Virus record (IMG/VR): IMGVR_UViG_3300028805_000061
DNA: 64,000 bases
Source of the DNA: a virus
Lineage: Duplodnaviria; Caudoviricetes
Direction: 5' to 3' (one strand)
The notes beneath the pieces were generated by a model. That model was not told the origin of the DNA. It saw nothing but the letters and a program-made list of their open reading frames with translations, and searched no databases. Below, piece by piece: positions 7,103 through 46,229 of this stretch. Every line of letters begins with the position of its first letter. The first letter of the stretch is position 1. A program made the translations under genes and the position numbers.

Positions 7103-7531
7103 ATGTCAGAACAAGATAGTGAGTGCAGAATAGATCATAATATGTTAGAGTATTCAATAAATAGACTAACAGAAAAAATAGACGGTATTACTTCTTCTCT
7201 AGCAGAAATGAATACTGGCTTACGAGTAATGGACTCTAAAGTAGATGATTTTTCTTATAGATTGAAAAAAGTTGAAGAAAGAGATGCTCAAGTACAAAGT
7301 TTAATACAAAAAGTAGACATTATTGTGAAAAAACTTGAGCCAGATGTAGATAGAATTGCTGAAAAACAAAGAAATTTTGAAGATTTGACTAAAGAAGAAG
7401 AACATAAATTTGATACCAGATTAACAAAGATTGAGAATAATTGGGGTTGGGTAGTAGCTATAGCTGGTATTAGTTCTGGTATAATAGTTGCTGTTGCTCA
7501 ACATATAATACTACAAATATTTTTTAAATAG
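7103..7531 (+). CDS. coiled-coil protein with C-terminal TM helix (holin/XhlA-like, putative)
   Basis: Heptad-rich N-terminus; single C-terminal TM WGWVVAIAGISSGIIVAVA. Confidence 0.45.
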   Translation: MSEQDSECRIDHNMLEYSINRLTEKIDGITSSLAEMNTGLRVMDSKVDDFSYRLKKVEERDAQVQSLIQKVDIIVKKLEPDVDRIAEKQRNFEDLTKEEEHKFDTRLTKIENNWGWVVAIAGISSGIIVAVAQHIILQIFFK

Positions 7532-7539
7532 GAGAAATA

Positions 7540-7923
7540 ATGGATAATAGAACTTTGATTGAATCTTTAGAATACCATGTTAATATTTTTGAAGAAGAGT
7601 CTAAATTGAAAAATGTTGCTGTAGTAGGGGGTGGAGCAGTTACTGGAGGTTTAGCCGGTAGAGCTATAGGGAGGGGTATAGGTAAACTCCAAGGTGCTAA
7701 TAAAATAGCTAATACTGTAGCAAAAAATAGAACTGCTGATATAGCCAAAAAAGCAGTTGGACTAAGTGCTAAAAGTTCTATTAAAGGCCAAATCTTAAAA
7801 CAGGCTCCTACTATAGGTAAAGGTATACAAAAACTAGGTAAAGCAGGAGCATTAGGAGGAGCTATAGCTGGAGGAGTTTTAGCAAAGAAAGCTTATGATC
7901 ACTTTAAGAATAAAAAGAAATAA
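7540..7923 (+). CDS. cationic glycine-zipper protein with acidic-ended leader (putative internal head protein)
   Basis: Leader MDNRTLIESLEYHVNIFEE; GGGAVTGGLAG and GALGGAIAGGVLAKKAYDHFKNKKK; paralogous to the 15.6-20 kb cluster. Confidence 0.7.
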   Translation: MDNRTLIESLEYHVNIFEEESKLKNVAVVGGGAVTGGLAGRAIGRGIGKLQGANKIANTVAKNRTADIAKKAVGLSAKSSIKGQILKQAPTIGKGIQKLGKAGALGGAIAGGVLAKKAYDHFKNKKK

Positions 7924-15185: not shown

Positions 15186-15351
15186 ATTACCTAATACAAT
15201 TTTAATAGATACTAATATAAAGATAGTAAAAGAAAATAATATTGAAGTAATAGTTAAAAGATTAGTAATATCTAGTCTTTTTTCTAATCTTTTAATAATA
15301 CCAGAAAGTTTTGCTGATTTTATAAGAAAGAGAGAAGGTATAAATGTCTGA
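14734..15351 (+). CDS. overlapping +1-frame ORF, true start uncertain
   Basis: Its 3' part is the only ORF covering 15186-15343; the frame stays open about 150 codons into the upstream gene. Confidence 0.45.
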   Translation: MKNLLLKMHIYKEEMMKKIYPSLLQDNNSNNQNNQQEYQSLILLIQKELEKIQFTQNTTIITLIPISQLSQHSLENLLKDIQKDKIWTSQITMTPDLINLQPSPVPSQMNSPVEKLRLPTCPVLEMDQAQIEIELKATTLPLKMHLTLDSRLPNTILIDTNIKIVKENNIEVIVKRLVISSLFSNLLIIPESFADFIRKREGINV

Positions 15352-15568
15352 TTTTGATAAAGATTGGGGATTTGAATGTGATCAATGTGGTCAAACAGTT
15401 GGTGGTGGGATTTATGATTTTGATGAATCTCTTGAACTAAGAAAACAAGAAGGTTGGATTAATAGAAAGATAGATGGTGAATGGTATTCCTTTTGTTGTG
15501 AAGAATGTTATCAAGACTGGGTAGCAGATCATCAATATAGACCGACTCCGAGAAAAATTCATAAATAA
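15344..15568 (+). CDS. zinc-finger (TRASH-like) protein
   Basis: CDQCG...FCCEECY. Confidence 0.65.
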   Translation: MSDFDKDWGFECDQCGQTVGGGIYDFDESLELRKQEGWINRKIDGEWYSFCCEECYQDWVADHQYRPTPRKIHK

Positions 15569-15611: not shown

Positions 15612-15926
15612 ATGAATAATAGACAACTAATTGAATCTCTTGAAAAATATACTAAGAAAATTCAGGAAGTTTCTGTGAATAAATGGCAAAGAGGTGCTAA
15701 AAATTCTTTACCAGGTAGAGAATTTGTTAATCTAAAAAATACAGAACTAACATTAGACCCTGACTATTATTCTGATGAACAGAAGCAAAAGATTTTAAAT
15801 AAAAGATTTAAAGATGCTCAAAGATATACTTATGCCAATAAAATAGCTGGATTAGATTTAAAAGATTTTGACACTAATAAAATACCAGCTAGAACAATGC
15901 AAAAAGCTTTAAGGAGTTATAAATAA
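15612..15926 (+). CDS. putative internal head protein with shared leader
   Basis: MNNRQLIESLEKYTKKIQE resembles MDNRTLIESLEY of 7540. Confidence 0.65.
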   Translation: MNNRQLIESLEKYTKKIQEVSVNKWQRGAKNSLPGREFVNLKNTELTLDPDYYSDEQKQKILNKRFKDAQRYTYANKIAGLDLKDFDTNKIPARTMQKALRSYK

Positions 15927-17323
15927 TGAGATTTAATGAAGTTGATATAGAAGTTAAACATTCTGGTTTACTTGAAGTACCTGCTGGTAAAGAAGTAGAC
16001 CAATTACCACAATCACATTTTCAAAAATTGATTGATAAAAAAGGTTATGAAGCTATTATTAGAGGACTTACTAATTTAGAAGTTTGGAATAAGAATAAAA
16101 ATCCTAAACTTAGTCAGTGGGCTTCTAATATGGCAGATAAATTAAAAGTAGTTAATAAGAAAGATGAAGCTTATTCTGGTAAGCTTTTTGAAATGAATGC
16201 TAAATTAGCTAAAAAACTAGGTATTAAAACAGTAACTGGTCTAAAGAAAGCTGGACAATATGCTAAAGATACAGTTGCTAAATCAGCTGATACTGCAAGA
16301 AATGCAATTGTAGCTGGTGCTGTAGCTCCAGTAGGAGCAGCTATAGCTCAAAAATATAGTCATAAGGATAAAAAGAAAGAACCAAGATATACTGCTGCAG
16401 AGGTAGCTGCTCTAGCTGCTGCAATGAAAAACAAAAATGAATCCCTTTCTAATAAATTATTTTCTTATTTGACTATATTAGAAAAAGAACAAAAAGAAGA
16501 ATCTGGAGTTAAAAAAGTTGCAAAAGGAGCTGCTAAAGGAGCTGGTATAGGTTTAGCTGGAGGAACAGCTTTAGGAGCTGGGGTAGGACATACAGTAGGA
16601 AAGGCTTTGACTGGTGGACTCAAAGGTAATTATGCCACTGGATTAGCTGGTGCTGCTACTAAAGGGGTTAGAGCTTTATCAACTGGAGCTGGTGCTGCTG
16701 GTGGAGCAGCATTAGGTTTAACAAGAGGTTTAGTTGGGGGAGCTTTAATAGCTGGAGGAAAACATTTATATGATAAACACAAAGCTAAAAAAGAAATTTC
16801 TAAAAAGAATGAATCCTTAATTGAAGCTTTAAATAGATTAAAAAGTATTTATGAAGAAGAAGGAATCCCTAAAAAGAAAAGAGTTTTAACTCCTGAACAA
16901 AAAGCAAGAAGACAAGAAAGAAGGAGATTGAGAAGACAATTAGAAAAACAAGGTATTTCTACTTCTAAACCTCGTTCTGGTCCAGTTAAAACCATACAAG
17001 GAGAACCTAATTTAGCTAAATCTATTGAAAATGCTAAAAAAGCAAAACAAACTACTAATACAGCAAAAACTGCTGGAGCTGCTTCATCAACAGTAAATAA
17101 GACTGCCGAAACTACTAAGAAATTTGTTTCAGATGGGGTTAAAAAAGCTACAGGAGCTACTAAAAATACAGTTAATAAAACTCTTAGACATTCACAAGCT
17201 TTAAAGAAAGTTTTAAACCGAGCTTCTTTAAGAGGGGGATTAGCTGGTGCTGCTATTACAGCTGGAGTAGGAGCTGCTGGATTAGCTGCTAAGAAAATGT
17301 ATGATAAAAACAAAAAGAAATAA
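15926..17323 (+). CDS. modular cationic glycine-zipper polyprotein (putative head-packaged)
   Basis: Three Lys-rich, Gly/Ala hydrophobic modules separated by KNESL...LE / KNESL...YEE linkers. Confidence 0.75.
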   Translation: MRFNEVDIEVKHSGLLEVPAGKEVDQLPQSHFQKLIDKKGYEAIIRGLTNLEVWNKNKNPKLSQWASNMADKLKVVNKKDEAYSGKLFEMNAKLAKKLGIKTVTGLKKAGQYAKDTVAKSADTARNAIVAGAVAPVGAAIAQKYSHKDKKKEPRYTAAEVAALAAAMKNKNESLSNKLFSYLTILEKEQKEESGVKKVAKGAAKGAGIGLAGGTALGAGVGHTVGKALTGGLKGNYATGLAGAATKGVRALSTGAGAAGGAALGLTRGLVGGALIAGGKHLYDKHKAKKEISKKNESLIEALNRLKSIYEEEGIPKKKRVLTPEQKARRQERRRLRRQLEKQGISTSKPRSGPVKTIQGEPNLAKSIENAKKAKQTTNTAKTAGAASSTVNKTAETTKKFVSDGVKKATGATKNTVNKTLRHSQALKKVLNRASLRGGLAGAAITAGVGAAGLAAKKMYDKNKKK

Positions 17324-17334
17324 GGAGATCAAAA

Positions 17335-17988
17335 ATGCAATTTAATGAAATATTTTCTAATACCCCAATAGATGAATCTATCAAGGGTGAAGCTATTAAA
17401 CAAGGTGCTAAAAAAGCTGCAAGATATGCTAGAGTAATGAGTAAGAAAGCAATAAATAAAACTAAAAAATATTTAAAACAACCTGCTACTAAAGGACAAG
17501 TAATAGGGGCTGCTTTAGTAGGGTCAGCTGTAAGAGGTAAAGCTGAAAAGATTCATCAAGCTAAATTAGCTAAAAAACAAAAGAATGAATCGTTAACTCC
17601 CTTTAAAGAAAAGAAAACAGTAATAGCTAAAAAATACAAAGGAAAAGATTTTAAGAAAATATTTGGTAAAAATAATATAGCTAAAAAAGCTACTAAAAAT
17701 GAATCATTAGTAGAAAAACTTGAAAGAGTTACAAATAATGTTAGAACAACTAATGAAGCTAATTTAGCTGGAATAGGTAAATCAGCAGTAAATGGTTTAA
17801 AAACATTTGGTAAAAATATTGGTGATACAGCTAAAACAGTAGGAGGAGCAATTAAAAAACACCCAGTAAGAACAGCAGCAATTGCAGGTACTGGTTTAGC
17901 TGGTTATGGAGCTTATAAAGGAGTTAAGAAAGCAGTAAATGGAGCTAAGAAAGCTGGTAAAGCTGCTTATCAAGATTGGAAAGTATAA
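17335..17988 (+). CDS. modular cationic glycine-zipper polyprotein
   Basis: MQFNE start; two KNESL linkers; AAIAGTGLAGYGAYKGVKK. Confidence 0.75.
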   Translation: MQFNEIFSNTPIDESIKGEAIKQGAKKAARYARVMSKKAINKTKKYLKQPATKGQVIGAALVGSAVRGKAEKIHQAKLAKKQKNESLTPFKEKKTVIAKKYKGKDFKKIFGKNNIAKKATKNESLVEKLERVTNNVRTTNEANLAGIGKSAVNGLKTFGKNIGDTAKTVGGAIKKHPVRTAAIAGTGLAGYGAYKGVKKAVNGAKKAGKAAYQDWKV

Positions 17989-19385
17989 TGATATTAGATG
18001 ACATTCTAAATAAAATAAGATATAAACAATCAGTAGATATTCCTAGACAAGATTTAGTAATGTTGTCTTTAGCATTGTGGAAAGAAGCTAATTTAATTGA
18101 AGAAGATAGTACCGAAGCACCTGGTAAAGCTGCTATAGAATATTTACTAAATCAAAAATATATGATTATAGAAAATCCAAAATTAGTAGATTCTGTAATA
18201 GATGTTCTTCTTAAAGAAATAGATGGAGTAATTAAAAAAGTGGTAGCAAAATATCATGTTAAAAGAAAAGGTAAAAATTTCTATTTTGATGAAGCCCTTG
18301 AGTTTGCTATTATTTCTCCAGATAAAATGAGTGATTGTGAAGATGCTAATCAATTAATAGCTAATCTATATGCTGCACAAGTTGAATTAGAAACTTTAAG
18401 AGTACAATTAACTAGGACAAATCTTCAAAATACTTCTCAAACTATATTGGCTAAACAAGCAGTATTAGATAAAGAACAAGAAATAAAAGAGATGAAAAAG
18501 AGACTAAGACTGTTTAGTTATTTTGATTCCGTTAGTGATCAAAATAATTTATATAGAAGATCTCTTGGAGAAGCTAAAAAAGAAGTTACTACTGGAGCTA
18601 TAGCTGGTGGGGTTGTTGGTAGTAAAATTGGTTCAGACAAATTTAAGAAAAAAGCTAATTTTGTTACTAAACAACAAAAGTTTCAACAAAATGTAAAGAA
18701 CTTAAATAATTCTAAAAAAGAAATGCAAGGTTTAGCTTCAGAAATAAAACATATTTACAATACTGGTCTAAGTCCAAATAAACAAAAGAAAGTAAATAAA
18801 TTAGTAGGCAAAATGAAACAAACTCTTAAAGACCAAAGACTTCTTAGAAATTCTGTTAAAAAAGGTGGAAAACAAGTAGTTGGTTTATCTAGAGAAGCTG
18901 CTAAAAGAGGTTTAAAAACTGGACTTAAAGGAGCTGCTATTGGAGCTGGTATTGGTTTAGGAACTGCTGCAATTCATAAAGCTCTTAATAAAAATGAATC
19001 ATTAACAGAAAGACTAAATCAACATTTGAGTAGATTAGAGGAAAAAACCTCTACTTTAAATACTTTTAAGGATAATAAGGGGATATATCAACTAGACACT
19101 TTTAGAAATAGAGCAAAGAATTTTTTACTCTCTCCTAAAGTAAATAATAGAACTACAATTTCTGCTGCTTTACTTGTAGGAGGAGTTGGTATTAGTTTAT
19201 TATTGAAAAAGGCTAAAGAAAAAGGAGCAGGAACTACTATAGGTTCTATTAAAAGAGCTGTAAGTAGAGTTCAAAAATCTAGTAAATATACTAATACACA
19301 AAAAGCTAAAATAAAAAATTCTGGAGATTTAGCAATAAGAAGAATAAATCAAGTATTTAAGAATAAAAAGGAGATTAACAAATGA
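17988..19385 (+). CDS. modular protein with cationic glycine-zipper modules
   Basis: Start moved to the ATG overlapping the upstream TAA; GLKGAAIGAGIGLGTAAIHKALNKNESLTERLNQHLSRLEE. Confidence 0.7.
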   Translation: MILDDILNKIRYKQSVDIPRQDLVMLSLALWKEANLIEEDSTEAPGKAAIEYLLNQKYMIIENPKLVDSVIDVLLKEIDGVIKKVVAKYHVKRKGKNFYFDEALEFAIISPDKMSDCEDANQLIANLYAAQVELETLRVQLTRTNLQNTSQTILAKQAVLDKEQEIKEMKKRLRLFSYFDSVSDQNNLYRRSLGEAKKEVTTGAIAGGVVGSKIGSDKFKKKANFVTKQQKFQQNVKNLNNSKKEMQGLASEIKHIYNTGLSPNKQKKVNKLVGKMKQTLKDQRLLRNSVKKGGKQVVGLSREAAKRGLKTGLKGAAIGAGIGLGTAAIHKALNKNESLTERLNQHLSRLEEKTSTLNTFKDNKGIYQLDTFRNRAKNFLLSPKVNNRTTISAALLVGGVGISLLLKKAKEKGAGTTIGSIKRAVSRVQKSSKYTNTQKAKIKNSGDLAIRRINQVFKNKKEINK

Positions 19386-19999
19386 AAAATGAATCAGTAG
19401 GTCTTAGACTTTTGAATAAGTTAGATATGCTTTCTCAAGGTCAACATATTTTTGAAGAAGTAGATGCACCAGAAAATGATGGGACAGCTGAAGATGCTGC
19501 AGAAGCTACAGAAGAAACTTCTGAAACCCTTAAAAGATTAAGAGGTCATTTATATAGATTCCAAGAAGCTGAAGGTGATAAAAAAGCTGTTGGAGCTGGT
19601 GCTTTAACTGGAGCTGTTGCTGGGACTGCTTTAGCTAGAAGATCAGCAGAAAAAGCTTATGGATTAAAAAATGCTGCTAAAGGTTTTGCTAAAAAAGGAG
19701 CAGAAGCTTCAAAAAATGCTGAATATTTTGCTAATAAAGCAATAGCAAAAGATGCAATGGCAAAAGCTAATAAAGTTGTTGGAAATAAAGCTACTGCTAA
19801 AGGTTTTGCCAAATCAGCAGCAGCTTCAGCAGGAGCAGCAGAAAAAGCAGCTAAGGGGGCTAAAGGGTTTGGTAAAGCAGCAAAAGAAGTAATGAAACCT
19901 ATTACCTCCAAAGGTTTCAAAGGTGGACTTAAGGGGGCAGCAATTGGGGCTGGAGCTGCTTATTTAGGTAAAAAAGCTTATGACTACTTTAAAAATTAA
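19382..19999 (+). CDS. cationic glycine-zipper protein with acidic pro-region
   Basis: MKNES...HIFEE, acidic spacer, RFQE, then GAGALTGAVAG...GLKGAAIGAGAAYLGKKAYDYFKN. Confidence 0.75.
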   Translation: MKNESVGLRLLNKLDMLSQGQHIFEEVDAPENDGTAEDAAEATEETSETLKRLRGHLYRFQEAEGDKKAVGAGALTGAVAGTALARRSAEKAYGLKNAAKGFAKKGAEASKNAEYFANKAIAKDAMAKANKVVGNKATAKGFAKSAAASAGAAEKAAKGAKGFGKAAKEVMKPITSKGFKGGLKGAAIGAGAAYLGKKAYDYFKN

Positions 20000-20035
20000 T
20001 AACTAAAAAAATTCTAACTGGTGATGGCAATACAG

Positions 20036-20076
20036 AAGAGAGAATAGATTATTTTCTATTCTCTCTTTATTTTTTT
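20036..20076 (+). terminator. intrinsic terminator closing the glycine-zipper operon
   Basis: AAGAGAGAATAGA / TCTATTCTCTCTT followed by a T tract. Confidence 0.85.
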
Positions 20077-26301: not shown

Positions 26302-28350
26302 ATGTTCTATACAAATAATCCTATAACAAATTTTTTAAACTCATTTTATGATAGAGCTGATATAGGTGTTCAACAATTAGACCCACAATCTCAATTTGCA
26401 TCAGTTAAATCAGGAGTTAGAGAATTTGATCAGTATTATAAACAATCTGTATTTGCGCAAATATTAGAAAGAATTGCTGGAACAATTGACTCAAGGGGAA
26501 ACTTATTTAGCCGTTTAAGAAATTTTAAAGATGACCCATTAGCAATTACTATGATTGATATTTTTATAGAAGATGGTTTTTCACAAACACAAAATAAAGA
26601 TTTTTATGAAGTAACTTACTCCCCCATAAATAATTCTGCTGAAGAAGATGATCTTGAGCCAGAAGATGAAGAAACAGAAATTATTGAAGATGAAAAAATA
26701 AAAGAAATACAAGATGTAATAAATGCTTGTGAAAAGAAATTTCTTTTAAAATCAAAATTTAAAAATATTTTATTTGATCTATTTCTTTTAGGTGAATGGA
26801 TGTGGGAAACAAAGTATGAAAAAAATGGAGATCCAAAAACAGGTGGTTTACAGTCTATAAAAGATAATAAGCTAGTTGATAATATTATAGGTATATATGA
26901 AGATGAAGTAGTATCTTCCTATATTGAAATTTGTCAATCTAGTATGGGTGAACCTAATGGAGGAATTAGAGAAATTGATAAAGATAATATACTTCATCTG
27001 GTGCTAAATCCTGGTACAATTCGTTTTTATATAAATGAGAACTATGGTCTTTCTGGTTATAATTACAATACTGGTTTTAATAGGAGTTCAAGTTATGTAG
27101 CTGGTTGGAATAGTAATACTTCTGGTTTTAATAGTTCAAATACAATAGATGACCCAGCTAATAATTATAGAACTCCCTTAGATCAACCTACTAAAGGTTC
27201 TAAAATGCTTTCTAAATATATTAGAACTGGTAGATCAGTATTATATAGTTCACTTAAAACACTTGAGAAGTTGGCTTTATTAGATATGACTAATTTAGCT
27301 TTACTCTTAAAAAGAGCTTTAAGTCCAACTATAATGAATGTTCAAGTACCAGAAAGTTATTCATACAAGAAAGCATTAGAAGCTGCTACAGCTTATGAAC
27401 AATGGTTTTATGATTCTACAGAAGAAACAAGAAATACTTTTTCACAAACTGGAGTTGATAATATCAACTTTAATAGAATATTAGAATTATCTCAAAAATT
27501 CAAATGTATGCCAGTATGGGGAGATTCCAAAGGTGCATTACAAACTCTTGACTTAGCTGATACAAGAGATAATAGAGATGCTATTAATGATATTAAAGAT
27601 GAACTTTCACTTACTTCAGGAATCCCTTATTATTATTTTAACCCTCAAGCAGGAGGGATGGAAAAGAAAGAGATGTTAAAAACTTATGCAAAATATGCAA
27701 GGAAATTACATATTTTGCAACAGTCTATAGCTAATTCAGTAATAGAACTTCATTATAAAAATTTGAAATATAAAGGTTATAAAGTTAACAGAGAAGATAT
27801 AGCAGTTAAATTTAAAGCTATTGTTAATGCTGATTCACTTGAATCTATTGAAGAAATAATTAATTTGTTTACAGCATTGACAGAAATAGTTGGTTCATTA
27901 GATGCATTTGCTTCTTCACAAGCATTACATGTAAGAGTAGTAACAAAAGCATTTATGAAATACTTTAGATTTATTACTCAATCATATCCATTTATACAAG
28001 ATATGCTAGAAGAAGCTCCAGAACAAACTCTAACTGATAACCCTGATTTATTAGTTGGTAATATGGGACCAGGTATGATGGGTTATGCTGATCCTAATAT
28101 GAATCCAGAAGATGTAGTTGCAATGCAACAACCACAAATAGATCCACAAACTGGACAACCTTTACAGCTTTCAGCAACACCACAACAAGCTGAGTATGCT
28201 GAAGCTTATGAATTATTTGGTACAACAGATTTGAATGAAGGTATGTCAAGGTTTAAATATAAATTAGCAAAGAAAATGTCCAAAAAAGTAGAAAGTTTAG
28301 ATGAAGCCATAACTAATAAACCATATAGATATAGTCAGACTTCTTTCTAG
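26302..28350 (+). CDS. portal protein (T4 gp20-like)
   Basis: Size and position; DLFLLGEW, GRSVLY...L..L.LL...L.RAL.P, L....GIP..Y, YARKL..LQ..I motifs. Confidence 0.75.
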   Translation: MFYTNNPITNFLNSFYDRADIGVQQLDPQSQFASVKSGVREFDQYYKQSVFAQILERIAGTIDSRGNLFSRLRNFKDDPLAITMIDIFIEDGFSQTQNKDFYEVTYSPINNSAEEDDLEPEDEETEIIEDEKIKEIQDVINACEKKFLLKSKFKNILFDLFLLGEWMWETKYEKNGDPKTGGLQSIKDNKLVDNIIGIYEDEVVSSYIEICQSSMGEPNGGIREIDKDNILHLVLNPGTIRFYINENYGLSGYNYNTGFNRSSSYVAGWNSNTSGFNSSNTIDDPANNYRTPLDQPTKGSKMLSKYIRTGRSVLYSSLKTLEKLALLDMTNLALLLKRALSPTIMNVQVPESYSYKKALEAATAYEQWFYDSTEETRNTFSQTGVDNINFNRILELSQKFKCMPVWGDSKGALQTLDLADTRDNRDAINDIKDELSLTSGIPYYYFNPQAGGMEKKEMLKTYAKYARKLHILQQSIANSVIELHYKNLKYKGYKVNREDIAVKFKAIVNADSLESIEEIINLFTALTEIVGSLDAFASSQALHVRVVTKAFMKYFRFITQSYPFIQDMLEEAPEQTLTDNPDLLVGNMGPGMMGYADPNMNPEDVVAMQQPQIDPQTGQPLQLSATPQQAEYAEAYELFGTTDLNEGMSRFKYKLAKKMSKKVESLDEAITNKPYRYSQTSF

Positions 28351-28387: not shown

Positions 28388-29521
28388 GTGAACCCTTTAA
28401 GAATATTCAATCAAGTTATATCTGATTTCAAAACTAGAATTAGAAAAAAGTTTGCTAAAACTTTAGGGATTAAAGATATAGGAGCTTATAAAAAAGAAAT
28501 TCAAGAAATGTTAGATGATCTTGAATCAGTAGCTCAACCAGAAGTAATAGAAGAGTTAGTAGAACAATATGGTATACAAGGGGCTGCACAACATTATATA
28601 GAACTAAATAAATATTATAGAGAGTATTATTTCTTTATAATTAAAGAAGTGAAAAAAGCTGAAAATACAACTAATGAATTTAAGAATTTTGCTAGAAGAG
28701 CTGAGGCTGAGTGGGAAAGTACTTATAAAGAGATTATTCAATATTTGTATGATAAAAAACAAAGAATGCTTTATGGTGATACTAATGAAGATGTAAAAAC
28801 ATATAAAGCAAATTCTTTTGCTGATCAACCATTACCCTGGCTTAGAAAAGAAGAATTAAATGAAGAAGATATATTTAATTCAGACTATATTCCAGAAGGA
28901 TTATTTGGTGCTTCAGTTGGTGTTGCTGGAGGAGCAGCAGTTGCGGTAGCTATATCCTCTTTATCGGCAGCATTTCATATTCATCCTAAAGTATTTACTG
29001 GTATTTCTACTGCAGTAGGAGCTTTGATAGGGCATTTTATTCAAAAACACTATTTTATAGATTTTACTAATTATGTAAAATTAAAAAGATATATAACACA
29101 TTACCCAGAATCATTTGAAGTTATTTGTGATTTAATGGCAAAGAATGCAGTTAAGTTTCAACAAAAAGACCCAGTAAAATATAAAAAGATTTTAATGAAT
29201 TTAAAGAGACTTCAACAAAATCCTCCAGAAATATATAAGAATTATTTGGATGATGAAATAGAAGCTGAAGAATCTAATTTAGATAGTGGTCTATTTGATG
29301 TAAAGGATAGAGAAGGTAATTTAATTAAGTCAGGTACAAGTCAAATAGTAAATAATAATTATTATAATAGAGATTCTAGAATATCTAGAAGAGACAGATT
29401 CTCCTCTAGAAGAGCTCTTTCCAGAAGAAGAGATTACGATATGGATGACTTAACTAATAATAAGAGTATATCACATGATCAATTAGCTATACAAACAAAA
29501 GATTTGTTAGGAGATTTATAA
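28388..29521 (+). CDS. hypothetical protein with central glycine-zipper hairpin
   Basis: ELNEE...IPEGLFGASVGVAGGAAVAVAI...ISTAVGALIGH. Confidence 0.6.
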   Translation: MNPLRIFNQVISDFKTRIRKKFAKTLGIKDIGAYKKEIQEMLDDLESVAQPEVIEELVEQYGIQGAAQHYIELNKYYREYYFFIIKEVKKAENTTNEFKNFARRAEAEWESTYKEIIQYLYDKKQRMLYGDTNEDVKTYKANSFADQPLPWLRKEELNEEDIFNSDYIPEGLFGASVGVAGGAAVAVAISSLSAAFHIHPKVFTGISTAVGALIGHFIQKHYFIDFTNYVKLKRYITHYPESFEVICDLMAKNAVKFQQKDPVKYKKILMNLKRLQQNPPEIYKNYLDDEIEAEESNLDSGLFDVKDREGNLIKSGTSQIVNNNYYNRDSRISRRDRFSSRRALSRRRDYDMDDLTNNKSISHDQLAIQTKDLLGDL

Positions 29522-29522
29522 T

Positions 29523-29840
29523 ATGCAACAAGTAGGTCAAAGAAGATTAAAACCAAAAAGAACTCCTGAACAAATTAAACAGGATAAAATAAATAAGCTT
29601 AAAAATGATATTACAAAATTGAGACAAAAGAAAGCTGTATTAAGATTAGAATTAGCACAACAAAGACAAAATGCTAAATCAGCTGAATATAAGGCAAGGC
29701 TAGATGCAATAGATCAAAAAGTTACAGAAAAGATGCAACAAATGAGAGATATTGCTACTGGAGTAGTACATAAAGTAGGACAAGTAGCTGCAAGTCCAGT
29801 TACTTTAGCTAAAAGAGTTTGGGATGATTGGCAGGTATAG
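29523..29840 (+). CDS. basic coiled-coil protein
   Basis: Ends RVWDDWQV, like AAYQDWKV of 17335..17988. Confidence 0.6.
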   Translation: MQQVGQRRLKPKRTPEQIKQDKINKLKNDITKLRQKKAVLRLELAQQRQNAKSAEYKARLDAIDQKVTEKMQQMRDIATGVVHKVGQVAASPVTLAKRVWDDWQV

Positions 29841-30701
29841 ATGAATTTATCAGAAAAACTAAATAAAGTAATAGAAAAACTAAATAATAAAATAGAAGCA
29901 ATTCAAGTAAGTTATTATGATAAACTGAATGAAGATGCTACATTGTATTATTTCTATTACAATCAAAACAATGATCCTACTATAGTAAGTTGTCCTATAG
30001 GAGGAAAACCAACTAGTGAGTCTTTAGCAATATCTTTACCTAGTTCAGTACATCAAGATTTAGACTTTAGACCAAATTCAACTATTTCAGAAAGTCAACT
30101 TGAATCAGTAATTAAGACATTTAAGATTTTGACTGAAAACGTGTTAAGAAAAAATGTAGAAAATGGTAGAGTAATTCGTAAAAGAGTTACTACTATAGAA
30201 AAACCAAATACTATAAAACCCTTAGTAAATAAGATTAAAAGTAAAAAAGCTGGCTTATATGCACAAACTGCAGCAGCAAGAATTAAAAGGGAACGTTCTA
30301 ATAACGTTAGAGATATATTAAATTTAGATAAACAGGCTAAGAAAGATAAGTCCGTTTTAGAGAATAAGGAGAATATAATGAATAGAAATGACTTTAATCG
30401 TCGTACTTATAAGTTACATGAAACTTATATGACGTATCCTCAAGCTCGTTCAATTGCTGATGATATTGTAAATACATTATATACAAAGAAACTTGCTTCT
30501 TACAATATTAAATACCCACAAACAGGTACTTGTGTTGTAGATCAAAAAGGTTTCTCCATTGATTTTGGAATGATGAATCGTAAATATATGGCAAAAGAAC
30601 AACTCCTAGACTATATTGCTAAAGATATTCTAGGAAGATGTTCTAGAGGCGAAGAATTACCTGAAGAAGTTGCAAAGAAAATTACGCTTCATCAGGTTTA
30701 A
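29841..30701 (+). CDS. putative prohead core protein
   Basis: Between portal and protease; LNE/LTE sites; basic segment RKNVENGRVIRKR...AARIKRERS like T4-type core proteins. Confidence 0.5.
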   Translation: MNLSEKLNKVIEKLNNKIEAIQVSYYDKLNEDATLYYFYYNQNNDPTIVSCPIGGKPTSESLAISLPSSVHQDLDFRPNSTISESQLESVIKTFKILTENVLRKNVENGRVIRKRVTTIEKPNTIKPLVNKIKSKKAGLYAQTAAARIKRERSNNVRDILNLDKQAKKDKSVLENKENIMNRNDFNRRTYKLHETYMTYPQARSIADDIVNTLYTKKLASYNIKYPQTGTCVVDQKGFSIDFGMMNRKYMAKEQLLDYIAKDILGRCSRGEELPEEVAKKITLHQV

Positions 30702-30715
30702 GGAGATAATGTTAA

Positions 30716-32218
30716 ATGGGACTAATTTCATTAAATGAAGTATGGGACTTCAATAGTTCTGATATAGCAGCTATTGGATCAGATACTCCTTATAAATTAA
30801 CTGAAGATTATCTAGTAGAAGGAGCTACTGCTCCAGAAGTAGATGGTAAAATAATACTAGGAAAAGTAATGGGCCCTAGCTTTTTTGGAGATGGAGTTTC
30901 ACGTAATCAGAGATTTTACCCTAGATCTCTTTGGGAAAGACAATTATCTTTACCAAGAATTAAAGAAAGATTAGCTAATCGTACAATGTTAGGTACAATT
31001 GGGCATGATGATGGTCCAGTAACCGAACAAGATATCTCTTCTGGTAGAGTATCTCATATTATTACTAATCTTTATTTAAAAGAGAATAATCAAGGTATTT
31101 CTGAATTACTTATATTGAATACTCCAGCCGGTAGAAATCTTTATACTTTGATGAAAGCTGGTAGTCGGTTAAAGATTTCCACTAGAGCGCAAGGGCAATT
31201 TCTAGAAGGAGAAACTCATAATGGGCTTCCTATAGTAGATCCAAAAACTTTTGTGTTAGAAGGTCTAGATATTGTTATTGAACCAGGATTTATAGAAACT
31301 GACCCAAGACTTCAAGAGTCCTTGAACAGAGTTACTCAGAGAGTTACTTCTATTTTAGAATCTAGAAGAAATATTACCAGCAACGTTAATAATACAAAAT
31401 CAATAAAAGAAAACAAAGGAGAAAACATTATGGAAATTACAGAACAACTATTACAAGAAGTTAGATCAGCTTCTAATGTTTACAAAACAATGTATGAAGA
31501 ACAAAAGAAATTAAGAGAAGAAGCTGAAGATGACAAAAAAGAAGCTGAAAAAGAATGTGAAGAATGCAAAAAAGAATTAGAAGAATGCAAAAAACAATTA
31601 TCAGCTTATAGAATGCTTGGAGAAGCTGCTGACTTATCACAAACTATTCAAGAATATGCAGAATTAGGTTTCTCTTCTCCCACAGAAGCAGCATTTATTC
31701 TTAATTCTTTAAAAGAAGAAGCAGAAGATGCTATAGATAAAGAAGAAGTAGAAGACATTAAAAAAGATGTAAAAGAAGCTGCTGAACTTTTGGCTCAATA
31801 TGAATCTTTAGGTACAGTAGATGAACTTAAAGCTATTAAAGAAAAAGCAGAAGAATTAGTTGATGAACTTGATAAAAAAGAAGAAGATGAAGTTACTGAA
31901 AGACTTTGCAGAAAATATCAACTTCCCGAATCTATTGTTCGTAAATTCGTTGAAACTTCAGAAGATGAAGAAGAAGCTGAAAAAGAAATTGAAGAAGCTT
32001 TAGAAGGTATGCCTGATCCAGAAGTAGATGATAAATCTGGTACTGATTTAGATGACTTCGAAAACGATCACGAACTTCCTAACAAAGTAAATAATAATGA
32101 TGTAGAAGCAGTTCCTGATGTAGTTGAAGAGTCTTTGAAAAAATTAGCTAGTAAACCTAAATCAGCAATCTTAGAAGGCTATAAACCTGGTTCATTAGTT
32201 AAATCTATGTTTGATTAA
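30716..32218 (+). CDS. prohead protease (T4 gp21-like) fused to acidic coiled-coil scaffold
   Basis: SRNQRFYP, LGTIGH, VSHII, ILNTPAGR, ISTRAQG, DIVIEPGF; Glu/Lys-rich helical C-terminal half. Confidence 0.88.
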   Translation: MGLISLNEVWDFNSSDIAAIGSDTPYKLTEDYLVEGATAPEVDGKIILGKVMGPSFFGDGVSRNQRFYPRSLWERQLSLPRIKERLANRTMLGTIGHDDGPVTEQDISSGRVSHIITNLYLKENNQGISELLILNTPAGRNLYTLMKAGSRLKISTRAQGQFLEGETHNGLPIVDPKTFVLEGLDIVIEPGFIETDPRLQESLNRVTQRVTSILESRRNITSNVNNTKSIKENKGENIMEITEQLLQEVRSASNVYKTMYEEQKKLREEAEDDKKEAEKECEECKKELEECKKQLSAYRMLGEAADLSQTIQEYAELGFSSPTEAAFILNSLKEEAEDAIDKEEVEDIKKDVKEAAELLAQYESLGTVDELKAIKEKAEELVDELDKKEEDEVTERLCRKYQLPESIVRKFVETSEDEEEAEKEIEEALEGMPDPEVDDKSGTDLDDFENDHELPNKVNNNDVEAVPDVVEESLKKLASKPKSAILEGYKPGSLVKSMFD

Positions 32219-32327: not shown

Positions 32328-32966
32328 ATGTCAATATTTTTCAAAAATACTAGTAAAACTAAATCAATTAGTTTAAGATATGGTGATGGTAATAATAATA
32401 TGATTCAATTAAAACCTGGCCAACAACAACCCATACCTTCAATATTTAATAAACAAAAACTACAATCTTATTTACGTTTATTTAAAGATTTGAAAATAGT
32501 AGAAGAACTTGAAGAAATAAAAGAAGAAAATAATGATATAACAGGAGAAGTAAATGGAGATTCTATTAAAGATAATTCAGAAAGTCAATTATCTACACCA
32601 GACGATACCTCAGGAGAACAGCAAGATAATCTTAATTCACAAGATGATAATCAACAGACAGAAAATCAAGAGGGAAACAATGATCCAGTAGTAAATGGAC
32701 CTGTTGAAGGGGAACAGCCAGAAAATCAAGAAGGGGACAATGATCCAGTAATAAATGGGTCTGTTGAAGGAGAACAGACAGAAAATAGAAATACTGAAGA
32801 TCAAGAAAAAGATAAACTTCCTATATATACTGAAAAAGAATTAAATAAATTATCTGCTGGAGAAATAAAAGAGATTGCTAAAAAATTAGGTATTGAAGTT
32901 ACAGAAGATTCTACTAAAAAAGCATTAATACCTGTTATATTAAATAAACAAGGAAAATTAGAATAA
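32328..32966 (+). CDS. acidic protein with C-terminal Rho-N/HeH-like domain
   Basis: LNKLSAGEIKEIAKKLGI......KKALIPVIL; internal 20-aa tandem repeat. Confidence 0.7.
   Translation: MSIFFKNTSKTKSISLRYGDGNNNMIQLKPGQQQPIPSIFNKQKLQSYLRLFKDLKIVEELEEIKEENNDITGEVNGDSIKDNSESQLSTPDDTSGEQQDNLNSQDDNQQTENQEGNNDPVVNGPVEGEQPENQEGDNDPVINGSVEGEQTENRNTEDQEKDKLPIYTEKELNKLSAGEIKEIAKKLGIEVTEDSTKKALIPVILNKQGKLE
32653..32786 (+). repeat. 60-bp in-frame tandem repeat (about 2.2 copies)
   Basis: ENQEGNNDPVVNGPVEGEQP / ENQEGDNDPVINGSVEGEQT / EN. Confidence 0.85.
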
Positions 32967-33877
32967 TGAATAATATGACAAAATATTCTAAAGAGATTAT
33001 AGAAGAATTGTATATTAATCAAAATAAAACTAGAAAAGAGATTTGTGAAATTTTAAAAATTTCTTGTAAAAAGTTTTGTAAGATGATAAAAGATTATGAT
33101 ATATATAAATCTAAAGATAAAATAATTTCTAGAATAAAACAGTCTAACATAAATACTTATGCTACTGGGAAACCTCAAGAAAAAATAAAACAAACTTTTA
33201 TAAAAAATTGGGGAGTTGAAAACCCCAATAAATTACTTACAATTCAGAATAAGAAAATTAATACTTCTTTAGAAAGATATGGAGAATCCCATCCCAATAA
33301 ATCTAAAGAAGTAAAAATTAAAATTTCTCAAAGTAATAAAAAAGTATATGCTACTGGAAAACCTCAAATAAAACAACAAGAAACTTTTCAAAAAAAATAT
33401 GGATATAATACCCCTCTATTAATTCCTAAAATTAGAGATAAGATTAGAGAAGGTTTTGATTCAGGTATTACACAACTGAAAGACTATAAAACCAAAAAGA
33501 AAAATAAATCTTTTAATAAATCAAAACCAGAAGAAGAAGCTTATCAATTACTCTTAACAAAATTTCCAGTAGAAGATATTGAGAGACAATATAGATCTGA
33601 ATTATACCCATTTAATTGTGATTTTTATATCAAATCCTTAGATCTATTTATAGAATGTAATTTTCATTGGACACATGGGAAATACCCCTATACGAATATT
33701 AAAGACCCTTTATTAGAAAAATGGGAAACAAGAAAAGATAAAAAATTCTATCAAAAAGCAATTGAAGTATATACTAGATTCGATCCTTTAAAAAGAAAAA
33801 TGGCTCAACAAAATAATCTTAATTGGATTGAATTCTTTACTTTAGCTGATATTTACAATTATATAAAGGAGTTATAA
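32966..33877 (+). CDS. free-standing homing-type endonuclease (PD-(D/E)XK, Vsr-like)
   Basis: HTH N-terminus, repeated K..T...KYG..NP motifs, SKPE...ERQY...FNCDFYI...DLFIECN.HW.H. Confidence 0.75.
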   Translation: MNNMTKYSKEIIEELYINQNKTRKEICEILKISCKKFCKMIKDYDIYKSKDKIISRIKQSNINTYATGKPQEKIKQTFIKNWGVENPNKLLTIQNKKINTSLERYGESHPNKSKEVKIKISQSNKKVYATGKPQIKQQETFQKKYGYNTPLLIPKIRDKIREGFDSGITQLKDYKTKKKNKSFNKSKPEEEAYQLLLTKFPVEDIERQYRSELYPFNCDFYIKSLDLFIECNFHWTHGKYPYTNIKDPLLEKWETRKDKKFYQKAIEVYTRFDPLKRKMAQQNNLNWIEFFTLADIYNYIKEL

Positions 33878-43307: not shown

Positions 43308-44774
43308 ATGTTATTTAACTTAGAAGAAATGGATCATCCTAGTATTAAGAACTATGCTACAAAATTGTACGAAAGATATCGTCCTTTCTGTGAAGCATAC
43401 AAAAGTTCACCTTATGCTAGAATGAAAAACTTGAAAATGTATGATTTTATTGCACTAGGAGAACAATTATTTCAATTTGAACGTTATTGTAAACGTCACA
43501 ATATGAAAATGTTCGAAAATATGAATGAAGGTTCAACTCTTGCTTCAGTTGGTGTTCCCCCAGTAGTAGTTCTTGATTTAATCACAGCTTCTCATGGTTC
43601 TAACATCATGCCAATGGTTGCTTCTGTTCAACCTATTAGAGAAAGAATTGGAGCTATTTACTTCAAGAAATTAATTGCAGCTACTACTCGTGGTAATGTA
43701 ACAGCTGGTCAACAGTTAGCTTACATTAAAGATATGCCAGAAGTATTCCCCGTTGGTTATGCTGGAGAAAAAGTTACTGAAACTTTAGCAACTACTGCTG
43801 ATGGTACTCTTACTTACAATGGAACATTTGCTAAATCTCCTGTTCGTCAACGTTCTATCAGAATTTCTGTAGAAGGTGATGAAGCTGTAAAAGGTGAAGA
43901 TAATGGAGAAGGCGATATTCTAGGTATTGGATGCTATGGTACAGTAAAATATGGTAATGCTTCTGAACCTGGTACTATTGAATTAACTTTCCTTAAACAA
44001 CCTGAAGCAGGTAAAAAGATTGTTGTTTCTTATGGTACTGACTTTGAACAAAATGGTCAACTTCCTGAAATTACTACTGAAATTGTTTCTGAACCAATTG
44101 AAGCAGAAATCTTTGGTATTAAAACTAAAGTTGGTCGTTTCCAAGAATTTGAATTGAAAAACAGATTTGGTATGATTGCCGCTGAAGAAATGATTCAAGA
44201 TCTTACTAATGAAGTTAACAATGAACTTGCTAACACATTAATTGATAGAGTTTCTAAAGCAGCAGTTGGTACTACAGTTTGGAATTATTACCCCCCATCT
44301 TCTACTATTCCAGAAGCTACTCACAGAATTTCATTCCTATACAAGATATCTAAAGCAGAAGCTACAATCTTAATGGGAACTGGACGTGGCGTAGTTAATG
44401 TAATGTTAGTAGACCCCCAAACAGCATATATACTTGATGATATGCCTGAATTCAATAAATCAGGTTTAGGTGGAGCTGGAGCTACTTTCTATGGTACATT
44501 GAAAAATACTATTACAGTAATTCGTTGTCCTCAACTTCCGGCTTGGACTTCATACTGTATTTATAAAGGAGATGGACCTTTCAATACTCCTATAGTATAT
44601 GCTCCTTATATGCCATTTATGTTGGTTGATCACTTACCTGTATTAGATAATGTTCTTAAACATCAAGCATTCGCTGCTTTATGGTCTGGTTTAAAAACAG
44701 TAGTTCAAAAATATATTACTAAATTAGTAATTGATACAACTACTAACAAACCCGATGGTGTTCCTGAACTATAA
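43308..44774 (+). CDS. major capsid protein (T4 gp23-like) with inserted beta domain
   Basis: VASVQPI....G.IYF, L..RFG..A.EE.IQDL..EV, GTL...I.V, PIVYAPYMP; predicted cleavage at MNE|GS; biased codon usage (CGT). Confidence 0.9.
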   Translation: MLFNLEEMDHPSIKNYATKLYERYRPFCEAYKSSPYARMKNLKMYDFIALGEQLFQFERYCKRHNMKMFENMNEGSTLASVGVPPVVVLDLITASHGSNIMPMVASVQPIRERIGAIYFKKLIAATTRGNVTAGQQLAYIKDMPEVFPVGYAGEKVTETLATTADGTLTYNGTFAKSPVRQRSIRISVEGDEAVKGEDNGEGDILGIGCYGTVKYGNASEPGTIELTFLKQPEAGKKIVVSYGTDFEQNGQLPEITTEIVSEPIEAEIFGIKTKVGRFQEFELKNRFGMIAAEEMIQDLTNEVNNELANTLIDRVSKAAVGTTVWNYYPPSSTIPEATHRISFLYKISKAEATILMGTGRGVVNVMLVDPQTAYILDDMPEFNKSGLGGAGATFYGTLKNTITVIRCPQLPAWTSYCIYKGDGPFNTPIVYAPYMPFMLVDHLPVLDNVLKHQAFAALWSGLKTVVQKYITKLVIDTTTNKPDGVPEL

Positions 44775-44843: not shown

Positions 44844-44861
44844 GTGTTCATATTTATAAAT

Positions 44862-46229
44862 ATGAATGAAATAGAAATACTAATAGAAAACATTAAAAAG
44901 CTATACTTAGAAGAAGATTTAGCTTATAGAAAGGTTTGTAAAATATTAGGTATATCCAAAGGTCGATTTGAAAGATTAGCTAAAAAATACAATATTAAAA
45001 AAGTTAAAGAATATAGAAGTAAATTAAAATCTACTATTAGCAAAGAAGAGTTAGAAGATTTATATGTAAATAAAAAATTAGATAGTATACAAATTTCTAA
45101 ATTACCTATAGCTAAAGGATATAGTAAAGGTAAAATATTAGAACTAATACACTTATATAATATAAAAAGACCAAAAGATTGGTACACCCCTTCTCAATTA
45201 GCTATTCCTAAAGAAACTAGAAATCTTTTAGAATGTAAAGAAAGATTAGAAAATTTTATAAAAGTTCAAGATAAACCTGTTGCTGTAGGTGCTTTAAGTA
45301 AAAAACTTCACATAAGTGCTTCTTATTTAAGAACATATCTTAATAAATATAGTTTATGGAATTATATAACTCCTAGTGCTTCTAAATATGAAGTTGAAAT
45401 AAAAGAAACATTTTCTAATTTAGGTATAGAATTAGCAAAAAATAAAAAGATACTTGGAAGTGGTAAAGAAATAGATTTATACAATGAACAACACAAATTA
45501 GGTGTAGAATTCAATGGGAATCATTGGCATAGAATAGATAATAAAGGTAGGAATTACCATCAAAATAAAAGTTTATTAGCTATTGAAAAAGGAGTATTTC
45601 TTTATCATATATTTGAATATGATTGGAAATCTCCCTATAAGAAAACTAAAATAATAAATCAACTAAAAAATCTTTTTGGATTAAATGAGTATAAAGTATT
45701 TGCTAGAAAATGCAAAATCAAAGAAGTTGTTTCTAAAGAAGCTAAAGACTTTTTAGACCAAAATCATTTACAGGGAGCAGATAAAGCCTTAGTTAGATTG
45801 GGTTTATACTTTAATAATGAATTAGTAGCAATAATGACTTTCTGTAAGCCTAGGTTTAATAAAAAGTTTGAATGGGAACTATCGAGATTTTGTTGTAAAG
45901 CCAATACTAGTGTAGTAGGTGGAGCTTCTAAATTATTTCAATATTTTATTAAAAACTATAATCCTGAAAATATAATTTCTTATTCAGATATAGCTCATAC
46001 AAAAGGGAGTTTATACGAAAAATTAGGGTTTGAATATAGATCTATATCTCATCCTAATTATGTTTGGGTAAAAGATGAAGAAGTTTTAACTAGGTATCAA
46101 TGTCAAAAAAGTAAACTTATAAAACAATTTCCAGAATATAAAGATTTGACTGAAAATGAAATTATGACAAAATTAGGATATATAAAAATAGAAGATGCTG
46201 GAAATATTTTATGGGTATTTAGGAGATGA
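44862..46229 (+). CDS. Hef-like homing endonuclease (PD-(D/E)XK plus GNAT-like C-terminal domain)
   Basis: SKYE..., EIDLY....KLGVEFNGNHWH, IFEYDW; FL..NHLQG, WELSRFC, GGASKLF, ISYSD, LYEKLGF; start taken as ATG 44862. Confidence 0.8.
   Translation: MNEIEILIENIKKLYLEEDLAYRKVCKILGISKGRFERLAKKYNIKKVKEYRSKLKSTISKEELEDLYVNKKLDSIQISKLPIAKGYSKGKILELIHLYNIKRPKDWYTPSQLAIPKETRNLLECKERLENFIKVQDKPVAVGALSKKLHISASYLRTYLNKYSLWNYITPSASKYEVEIKETFSNLGIELAKNKKILGSGKEIDLYNEQHKLGVEFNGNHWHRIDNKGRNYHQNKSLLAIEKGVFLYHIFEYDWKSPYKKTKIINQLKNLFGLNEYKVFARKCKIKEVVSKEAKDFLDQNHLQGADKALVRLGLYFNNELVAIMTFCKPRFNKKFEWELSRFCCKANTSVVGGASKLFQYFIKNYNPENIISYSDIAHTKGSLYEKLGFEYRSISHPNYVWVKDEEVLTRYQCQKSKLIKQFPEYKDLTENEIMTKLGYIKIEDAGNILWVFRR

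Follow-up and report, generated by a model that had tools for sequence, protein, structure and literature searches.

A leader helix repeated within basic glycine-zipper proteins, predicted head cargo of an uncultured T4-like gut phage

That a short leader can address proteins to the assembling head, to be removed there by the head protease, is textbook biology of phage T4. The T4 protease gp21 cuts after Glu in L/I-X-E (PMC9026906), and the T4 internal proteins carry a 10-residue capsid targeting sequence (CTS) that ends in a gp21 site and addresses otherwise unrelated proteins to the prohead core (PMC9026906, PMC3012670). Here we analyse an operon of five genes (gA to gE, 15612-19999) and an outlying gene (gO, 7540..7923) in a 64,000-nucleotide (nt) stretch of DNA, hereafter the window, which corresponds to bases 60620-124619 of the 144,741-bp IMG/VR virus record IMGVR_UViG_3300028805_000061, rated complete. 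The six genes encode basic proteins marked by a recurring amphipathic helix, which we call the tag. Based on sequence comparison and analogy with T4, we favour, with about even confidence, the reading that they are internal head proteins (of the core or ejection type) of a T4-like myophage, addressed by their tags to the prohead core and cut at these tags.

The giant phages phiKZ, 201phi2-1 and SPN3US cleave their head proteins at the motif S/A/G-x-E. Their homologue of gp21 has diverged and acts after Glu on many head proteins, sometimes at several sites in each, and abundant cleaved proteins remain with the DNA (PMC9026906, PMC10052503, PMC7411985). Polyvalent proteins are multi-module chains that are predicted to be packaged and delivered, with some modules released by proteolysis (Iyer et al. 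2017; PMC5512222).

The locus described here resembles the system of T4 IPI, IPII, IPIII and Alt in having a gp21-type protease, a short leader ending in L/I-x-E on unrelated small basic proteins, polymorphic cargo genes located away from the head cluster, and an acidic scaffold opposite basic cargo. Unlike in T4, the leader comprises 17-20 rather than 10 residues without sequence similarity to the CTS, it is also repeated within chains as a joint between modules, and the cargo is of low complexity (Lys/Gly/Ala), bearing Gly zippers and a tail of the form KKxYD; for this phage, packaging and cleavage are predictions. Glu-directed cutting of head proteins at a short motif, with multiple sites per protein, would be common to this phage and the giant phages, but reviews of phiKZ, 201phi2-1 and SPN3US mention no leader reused at internal sites, and the cleaved proteins of these phages do not consist of similar modules in tandem. 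In polyvalent proteins, too, one finds several modules strung in one chain for which capsid packaging and delivery are predicted. However, theirs are recognisable enzymatic or anti-defence domains, often with their own peptidase, whereas Pfam and PHROG searches of gA-gE detected no recognisable effector or enzyme domain, and the predicted cutter is the head-maturation protease. New to the present system are a joint that is a complete copy of the leader helix, a cargo whose basic, low-complexity glycine-zipper modules form a family with no known relatives, and a Glu-Ser signature that is common to the operon and the scaffolds of four distant phages.

Leader helices and their internal copies

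The five operon genes are translationally coupled, and their open reading frames (ORFs) and translations match those quoted in an earlier annotation of the window (the original prediction). gA and gB share one base (TAATG), gB and gC are spaced by 11 nt, gC and gD again share one base (TAATG) if gD starts at ATG 17988, the start used in all database homologues, and gD and gE overlap by ATGA, so that gE opens with a tag at the overlap. A terminator-like hairpin (20035-20068, +; 14-bp stem, with a T-run to 20078) lies 35 nt past the gE stop codon and is the sole strong hairpin of this type on this strand. All six proteins are rich in Lys (14-20%) and in Gly plus Ala (up to 35%), with net charges of +9 to +54. 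ORFs, junctions and composition thus confirm the five-gene operon, its hairpin and the gO outlier as originally predicted. Directly upstream of the operon lies a gene for a 74-residue TRASH/YHS-type zinc-finger protein (15344-15568; PF24273, E=8e-7), and since this gene directly precedes gB in relatives that lack gA, the transcription unit may begin upstream of gA. With ~28% GC, the genome does not lend itself to the recognition of a late promoter of the T4 type (TATAAATA).

The sequence that recurs between modules had been described as a repeated amphipathic linker. Its KNES[LVI] motif is exclusive to these proteins and non-random, and the sequence is predicted to be helical, but the alignments indicate that an amphipathic N-terminal leader of 17-20 residues has here been copied into the chain, rather than a spacer placed there. 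Across all genome ORFs of at least 40 amino acids (aa), KNES[LVI] occurs six times, twice each in gB and gC and once each in gD and gE (at residue 2), and nowhere else; residue shuffles of the six proteins produced a mean of 0.011 such motifs and a maximum of 1 in 20,000 shuffles. The consensus of the tag reads [M/K]-N-(E-S)-L-[TIV]-E-x-L-x-x-x-[LIV]-x-x-[LI]-x-E, its helical hydrophobic moment exceeds the mean of its own shuffles in 12 of 12 tags, and AF2 models the tags as helices. Repeats in the operon DNA are merely 60-80% alike, except for a 16-nt word at three tags, and the tags are therefore not recent DNA duplications.

Related leaders are present on at least nine proteins, namely g2231, g2664, g3003, g3345, g3998, p29841, gA, gO and gE, whose downstream sequences are unrelated. 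The first five of these are neighbours near the left genome end and carry an N-terminal helix of the type MKNLTERLDKHLQSIRE, to which the internal tag of gD (KNESLTERLNQHLSRLEE, nt 18990-19043) is almost identical. When a hidden Markov model (HMM) was built from these five leaders outside the operon, the best matches beyond its training set were gD 339-356 (E=0.002) and the N-terminus of gA (E=0.001), and BLASTP aligned the g3003 leader with gD 341-361 (E=0.002) and gA with gO (E=0.007). Moreover, gA is a paralogue of the tagged 107-aa protein g3003 (genome 3003-3326; BLASTP E=2e-6), the match extending 17 residues beyond the leader. The remaining internal tags connect to the leader family via the gD tag and via homologues such as P0011, which contains KNEQLIESL. 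Through these links, LIESL of gA and gO aligns with LTERL, LIEAL and LVEKL and not with NESL; LIESLE itself is found at the N-termini of gA and gO and is confined to them among ORFs of this length. An HMM of the operon's own tags returned nothing else of significance genome-wide. Almost every leader or internal tag, in this phage as in its homologues, has [LI]xE 10-11 residues past the tag core, the site in the most distant gD homologues being ITE at +16.

Within the operon, gA (15612..15926, +; 104 aa) consists of a leader tag (aa 1-19, nt 15612-15668) and a basic soluble part. gB (15926..17323, +; 465 aa, net charge +54) begins with a conserved N-domain (aa 1-78) and contains a degenerate tag (nt 16160-16219), tag 2 (nt 16433-16483) and tag 3 (nt 16805-16861). 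An Arg-rich helix spans its residues 313-345, Gly/Ala zippers occupy three stretches, and K[KH]xYDK terminates two of its modules. gC (17335..17988, +; 217 aa, net charge +36) has an N-terminal leader of a second type with invariant IDE-S (aa 12-15), a 38-aa insert (nt 17581-17694) with KNESL at both borders, a tag (nt 17695-17757) and the C-terminus ..YQDWKV. In gD (17988..19385, +; 465 aa; alternative start TTG 17976), the N-domain is helical and the sequence LYRRSLGE (nt 18549-18572), ahead of the first Gly zipper, is invariant; the internal tag follows, and the last module holds the only transmembrane-like segment detected by hydropathy (aa 391-415). gE (19382..19999, +; 205 aa) starts with a tag (MKNESV..HIFEE, nt 19382-19459) from which an acidic spacer leads into a repeat region rich in Ala and Lys, and the Gly zipper after it terminates in KKAYDYFKN. 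The archetype of a single unit is gO (7540..7923, +; 127 aa), in which a tag (nt 7540-7599) is followed by a variable Gly/Ala/Lys middle and then by a Gly zipper and KKAYDHFKNKKK. The gene immediately upstream of gO (7103-7531) codes for a coiled-coil protein of 142 aa, whose C-terminal end holds a hydrophobic transmembrane segment and which looks tail-anchored or holin-like.

Five times in the genome, K[KH]x[YL]D comes after a Gly/Ala zipper, only in gO, gB (twice), gE and, in degenerate form, gD, which confirms the predicted module ending of zipper plus KKxYD-type motif. The only non-phage match of gO in an exhaustive phmmer search was a fungal sequence, P0025 (NCBI KAJ2796236.1, hypothetical protein of Coemansia helicoidea; E=7e-5, 5 stretches). 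It comprises ~6 repeats in which a hydrophobic Gly/Ala stretch leads into KKTYDHFQDK, the same motif as at the module ends of gO, gB and gE, which is trailed by acidic residues in the fungal protein and by basic residues in the phage proteins. This likeness could be convergent, or the motif could be a membrane anchor of wider occurrence.

Class II bacteriocins are superficially similar in that an amphipathic leader at the N-terminus precedes a cationic peptide rich in GxxxG, and the six genes could on that ground be taken to encode leader-dependent secreted peptides, each a class II type leader with a Gly-rich cationic peptide, that kill competitors of the host. The class II bacteriocin family PF10439 (Bacteriocin_IIc) matches one gO homologue weakly (E=0.23), and no family match reaches threshold level. 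The leaders end in Glu and contain no double-glycine site, they also occur internally and on soluble proteins of 100-290 aa, and among the ~35 window proteins scanned with PHROG and Pfam none matched a peptidase-ABC exporter. We consider a secreted bacteriocin highly improbable.

Head protease, scaffold and a predicted cutting rule

The genome belongs to a phage with T4-type head and tail genes, including a tail sheath. The window encodes a portal protein (26302..28350, +; tblastn to annotated portal vertex proteins), a T4 gp23-type major capsid protein (43308..44774, +; PF07068 E=1e-16) and a 500-aa prohead protease-scaffold (30716..32218, +) composed of a T4 gp21-type protease (aa ~1-200) and a scaffold-like part (aa 241-500). 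A protease at 30716 had been proposed originally, and its gp21 type is supported by phrog_207 (E=3e-21) and by tblastn matches (1e-30 to 1e-40) to annotated prohead core scaffolding/protease proteins. The scaffold part is acidic and coiled-coil (77 D/E vs 37 K/R, aa 241-500). The protease-scaffold fusion (~480-510 aa) is kept in the cultured phages Rhizobium TM21B (Kleczkowskaviridae), Ralstonia RP13 and E. coli IME392 (coordinates in these relatives: L003 4448-5959, L004 4421-5950 and L005 4488-5924), even though their capsid proteins are only 30-36% identical to that of the present phage.

[LV]-x-E-S-[LE]-N closes the protease domain in this phage, TM21B, RP13 and IME392 alike (four of four), the junction between protease and scaffold in this phage being LQE-SLN (nt 31304-31366). 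The tag-like stretch at this junction scores only E=12 with the operon-tag HMM, and the case for the junction is therefore made from the cross-phage alignment instead. Across the four scaffolds, E-S-[LIVAM] occurs 26 times against 4.85 expected (maximum 13 in 5000 shuffles), with a hydrophobic P3 residue at 20 of 24 scaffold ES sites. Per 1000 residues, the motif is found 13.2 times in the scaffold part of this phage, 6.3 times in the operon plus gO and 1.15 times in the other 147 long ORFs, which corresponds to an enrichment of ~5-fold in the operon and 11-fold in the scaffold. This is what a scaffold that is cut up by its own protease should look like, and the richness in ES sites of the four scaffolds leads us to predict [LIV]-x-E-S as the cutting rule of this protease clade. 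A variant, x-N-E-S/G, is likewise predicted, as at the conserved Glu before the core of the mature capsid protein, where the propeptide is predicted to end (..MNE-G, ~aa 73). Another candidate maturation site of the capsid protein, LGE at residues 50-52, was rejected because its Glu lacks conservation in relatives.

A tagged gene also lies within the head cluster. The 286-aa protein p29841 (29841..30701, +; leader nt 29841-29897) is encoded between portal and protease, just upstream of the protease gene, in the position of the T4 core proteins gp67/gp68, and the 61-aa ORF75 in the portal-protease slot of RP13 has the N-terminus MVAINESL. The position of p29841 would also fit prohead core or scaffold accessory proteins that help in building or sizing the head and, like T4 gp22, gp67 and gp68, are cut up, here at their tags, the fragments being expelled before DNA packaging with no delivery to the host. 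Such a role shares the evidence of the tag and the ES sites with the internal-protein reading, and in T4 it is the core proteins that are cut into several fragments (PMC9026906). However, T4 core fragments are acidic and the basic proteins are those retained with the DNA, whereas the modules of this phage are strongly basic (+9 to +54), and the presence or absence of gA and the variable modules of gC suit accessory cargo better than an essential scaffold. A core or scaffold role is one to which we give a low probability.

If the six proteins are instead internal head proteins, as we favour, the tag would direct its cargo to the core of the assembling prohead, with the acidic coiled-coil scaffold fused to the protease as the likely docking partner. 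Since the tag is repeated inside the gB, gC and gD chains, each basic module would have its own address. Both kinds of tag edge, xNE-S and [LI]xE, would offer the gp21-type protease a Glu after which to cut, and its action would release ~10 basic proteins of 70-310 residues, which would stay with the DNA once the acidic scaffold is degraded, and would exit the head with it. Packaging, cleavage and delivery are each inferred. Support by analogy comes from the tagged gene between portal and protease and from the pairing of basic cargo with an acidic scaffold, comparable to the T4 internal proteins and gp22. A complex prediction for the scaffold part (aa 201-500) with gO returned a score of 0.00, which is evidence neither way.

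Several further genes of the head region deserve mention. Between portal and protease, a gene at 28388-29521 encodes a 377-aa protein that has a tail rich in Arg and Ser and a strong double Gly/Ala-zipper hydrophobic segment (~aa 163-220). With such a membrane-like hairpin, it is a candidate for a protein of the prohead core or of ejection. In the same slot, p29523 (29523-29840) shares with gC the ending [YW]xDWxV, found in only these two ORFs of the genome and kept as (D/N)W(K/R)x in 13 of 13 gC homologues. A wider likeness of p29523 to gB (KR..TPEQ) and gC (..DWxV) had no BLASTP support, leaving only the coincidence of the C-terminal pentapeptide. Unlike in the cultured relatives, the capsid gene is located 11 kb from the protease gene and is followed by a homing-endonuclease gene (44844-46229; phrog_3339, E=7e-89), and behind the protease block lies another gene of endonuclease-like type (32966-33877); the head cluster may owe its present arrangement to mobile endonucleases.

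Module turnover among relatives

Homologues were obtained for gB (19), gC (18) and gD (11), all of them metagenomic. gA is a presence/absence cassette, being absent with a precise junction in the JGI contig L002 and also in contigs of two other runs, in which 15588/15593 is joined to 15923/15926. The 38-residue gC segment, which opens with KNESL and extends up to the next copy of that motif, is present in 3 of 13 gC homologues, four shorter gB homologues have no N-domain and start at the first (degenerate) tag, and one gC homologue reuses gC's own N-terminal leader internally, directly after KNES. Relatives thus gain or lose modules precisely at tags.

The tags are conserved at least as well as the modules that they bound. 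Tag 3 of gB is 0.75 identical, compared with 0.57 for gB overall, and in the four-member gO family the tag is 0.65 identical, compared with 0.29 for the middle of the protein. In 13 aligned gC homologues, K121, E123 and S124 (the K, E and S of KNESL) are invariant, and an invariant Glu is found at further module edges, namely in LYRRSLGE before the first gD zipper and in IDE-S at gC residues 12-15. In the gO family, both ends (the tag and KKAYDHFKNKKK) are invariant and the middle drifts, which argues that the C-terminal zipper plus tail is a functional unit.

Near-identical DNA is present in sheep, goat and bovine gut metagenomes, and one gB homologue filed under a Romboutsia metagenome-assembled genome gives a weak hint of Romboutsia as a possible host. 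No relative was found by scanning a viral-contig collection with gB, alignment A1 and the capsid protein, or by a scan of a genome-contig collection, and the operon and gB gave no match to cultured phages (blastn, tblastn), with 50,697 phage records covered in the tblastn of gB. ESM Atlas searches provided no usable lead, and no RNA run is among the public runs listed as holding the stretch.

Fate of the modules and significance

The ~10 products expected from cutting at the tags would range from 70 to 310 residues and from +3 to +31 in net charge, which places them with the T4 internal proteins in size and not with antimicrobial peptides. The modules are therefore basic Gly-zipper units, as originally described, but small proteins rather than peptides. 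AF2 models gB as mostly disordered (pLDDT 38), save for the tags and the conserved Arg-rich helix, and gD as all-helical at low confidence (pLDDT 59). The hydropathy of most zippers is under the transmembrane level, gD 391-415 being the exception. None of the six proteins has a family match above threshold in Pfam or PHROG, the glycine zipper 2TM family PF05433 scoring 15.1 bits on gD only (cut-off 24.2), and homology to the T4 CTS or to IPI-III was not found with Pfam and PHROG on the six proteins or by tblastn of gB.

These properties do not favour the bacteriocin- or antimicrobial-like membrane peptides of the original prediction. We retain its address-and-cut part, for which the identity of the leader, the [LI]xE and Glu-Ser motifs, the enrichment in scaffolds and the turnover of modules at tags provide indirect support for loading into the head and cutting by the prohead protease, and, given the size, disorder and hydropathy of the modules, we regard its membrane-peptide part as unsupported speculation. 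A more specific form of that idea would make the head protease a convertase. Polyproteins kept harmless under acidic leader helices, in the manner of antimicrobial peptide precursors, would be cut in the capsid into cationic glycine-zipper proteins and injected with the DNA, and would insert into the host membrane by Gly zipper and KKxYD tail, opening or priming an entry path or depolarising the cell. We give this scenario only a slender chance. As a guess at the role of the modules after delivery, charge neutralisation or DNA binding is the more conservative and membrane insertion by Gly zippers the bolder, and a role as DNA counterions is at least as likely as a membrane role.

Gly/Ala zippers with a basic aromatic C-terminal motif, together with one transmembrane-like segment, could also be expected of proteins that act in the infected cell and never enter the virion. 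Such proteins might be membrane-associated, with roles in superinfection exclusion, lysis timing or envelope remodelling, or might coat the nucleoid as histone-H1-like polycations, as the predicted disorder and the Arg-rich helix of gB would allow, the tag helix serving oligomerisation or partner binding. The setting of the operon among non-structural genes, beside the TRASH zinc protein and a ligase, is compatible with this possibility. However, it leaves unexplained why the same helix is found on unrelated soluble proteins and on a protease-adjacent gene, and why the tag edges copy the Glu-Ser/[LI]xE pattern that is enriched in scaffolds; in addition, the proteins have no signal peptide and most zippers lie below transmembrane hydropathy. 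A non-virion role is unlikely, though we take it seriously.

A number of observations weigh against internal head proteins as well. The phage is uncultured and the system is known only through its genes. The operon lies 10 kb from the head genes and adjoins a DNA ligase gene, and its tags do not resemble the T4 CTS in sequence. The HMM of leaders from outside the operon is significant only on the gD tag and gA, and the other tags are thus linked transitively. The protease scores 23 bits on Pfam PF03420 (S77), for which the cut-off is 27, and phmmer against PDB sequences matched no solved gp21. The enrichment of ES sites in scaffolds is a correlation and the clade's cutting rule a prediction, and KNE-S has Lys at P3, where most scaffold ES sites have a hydrophobic residue.

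If the six genes do encode internal head proteins, the T4 principle of an address tag and a protease cut would be far more general than the T-even phages. It would also be usable in series, since a leader copy before each module turns separate cargo genes into one chain and back. A simple sequence rule would then be at hand to predict packaged or injected proteins in uncultured phages, and the tag would be a natural one that might load foreign proteins into the capsids of Gram-positive gut phages. The Glu-Ser enrichment in four distant scaffolds predicts the specificity of this protease clade. The cargo itself, extremely basic, disordered and ending in glycine zippers, is without a described counterpart, and bears on the charge balance of DNA in the head and on what accompanies the genome into the cell.

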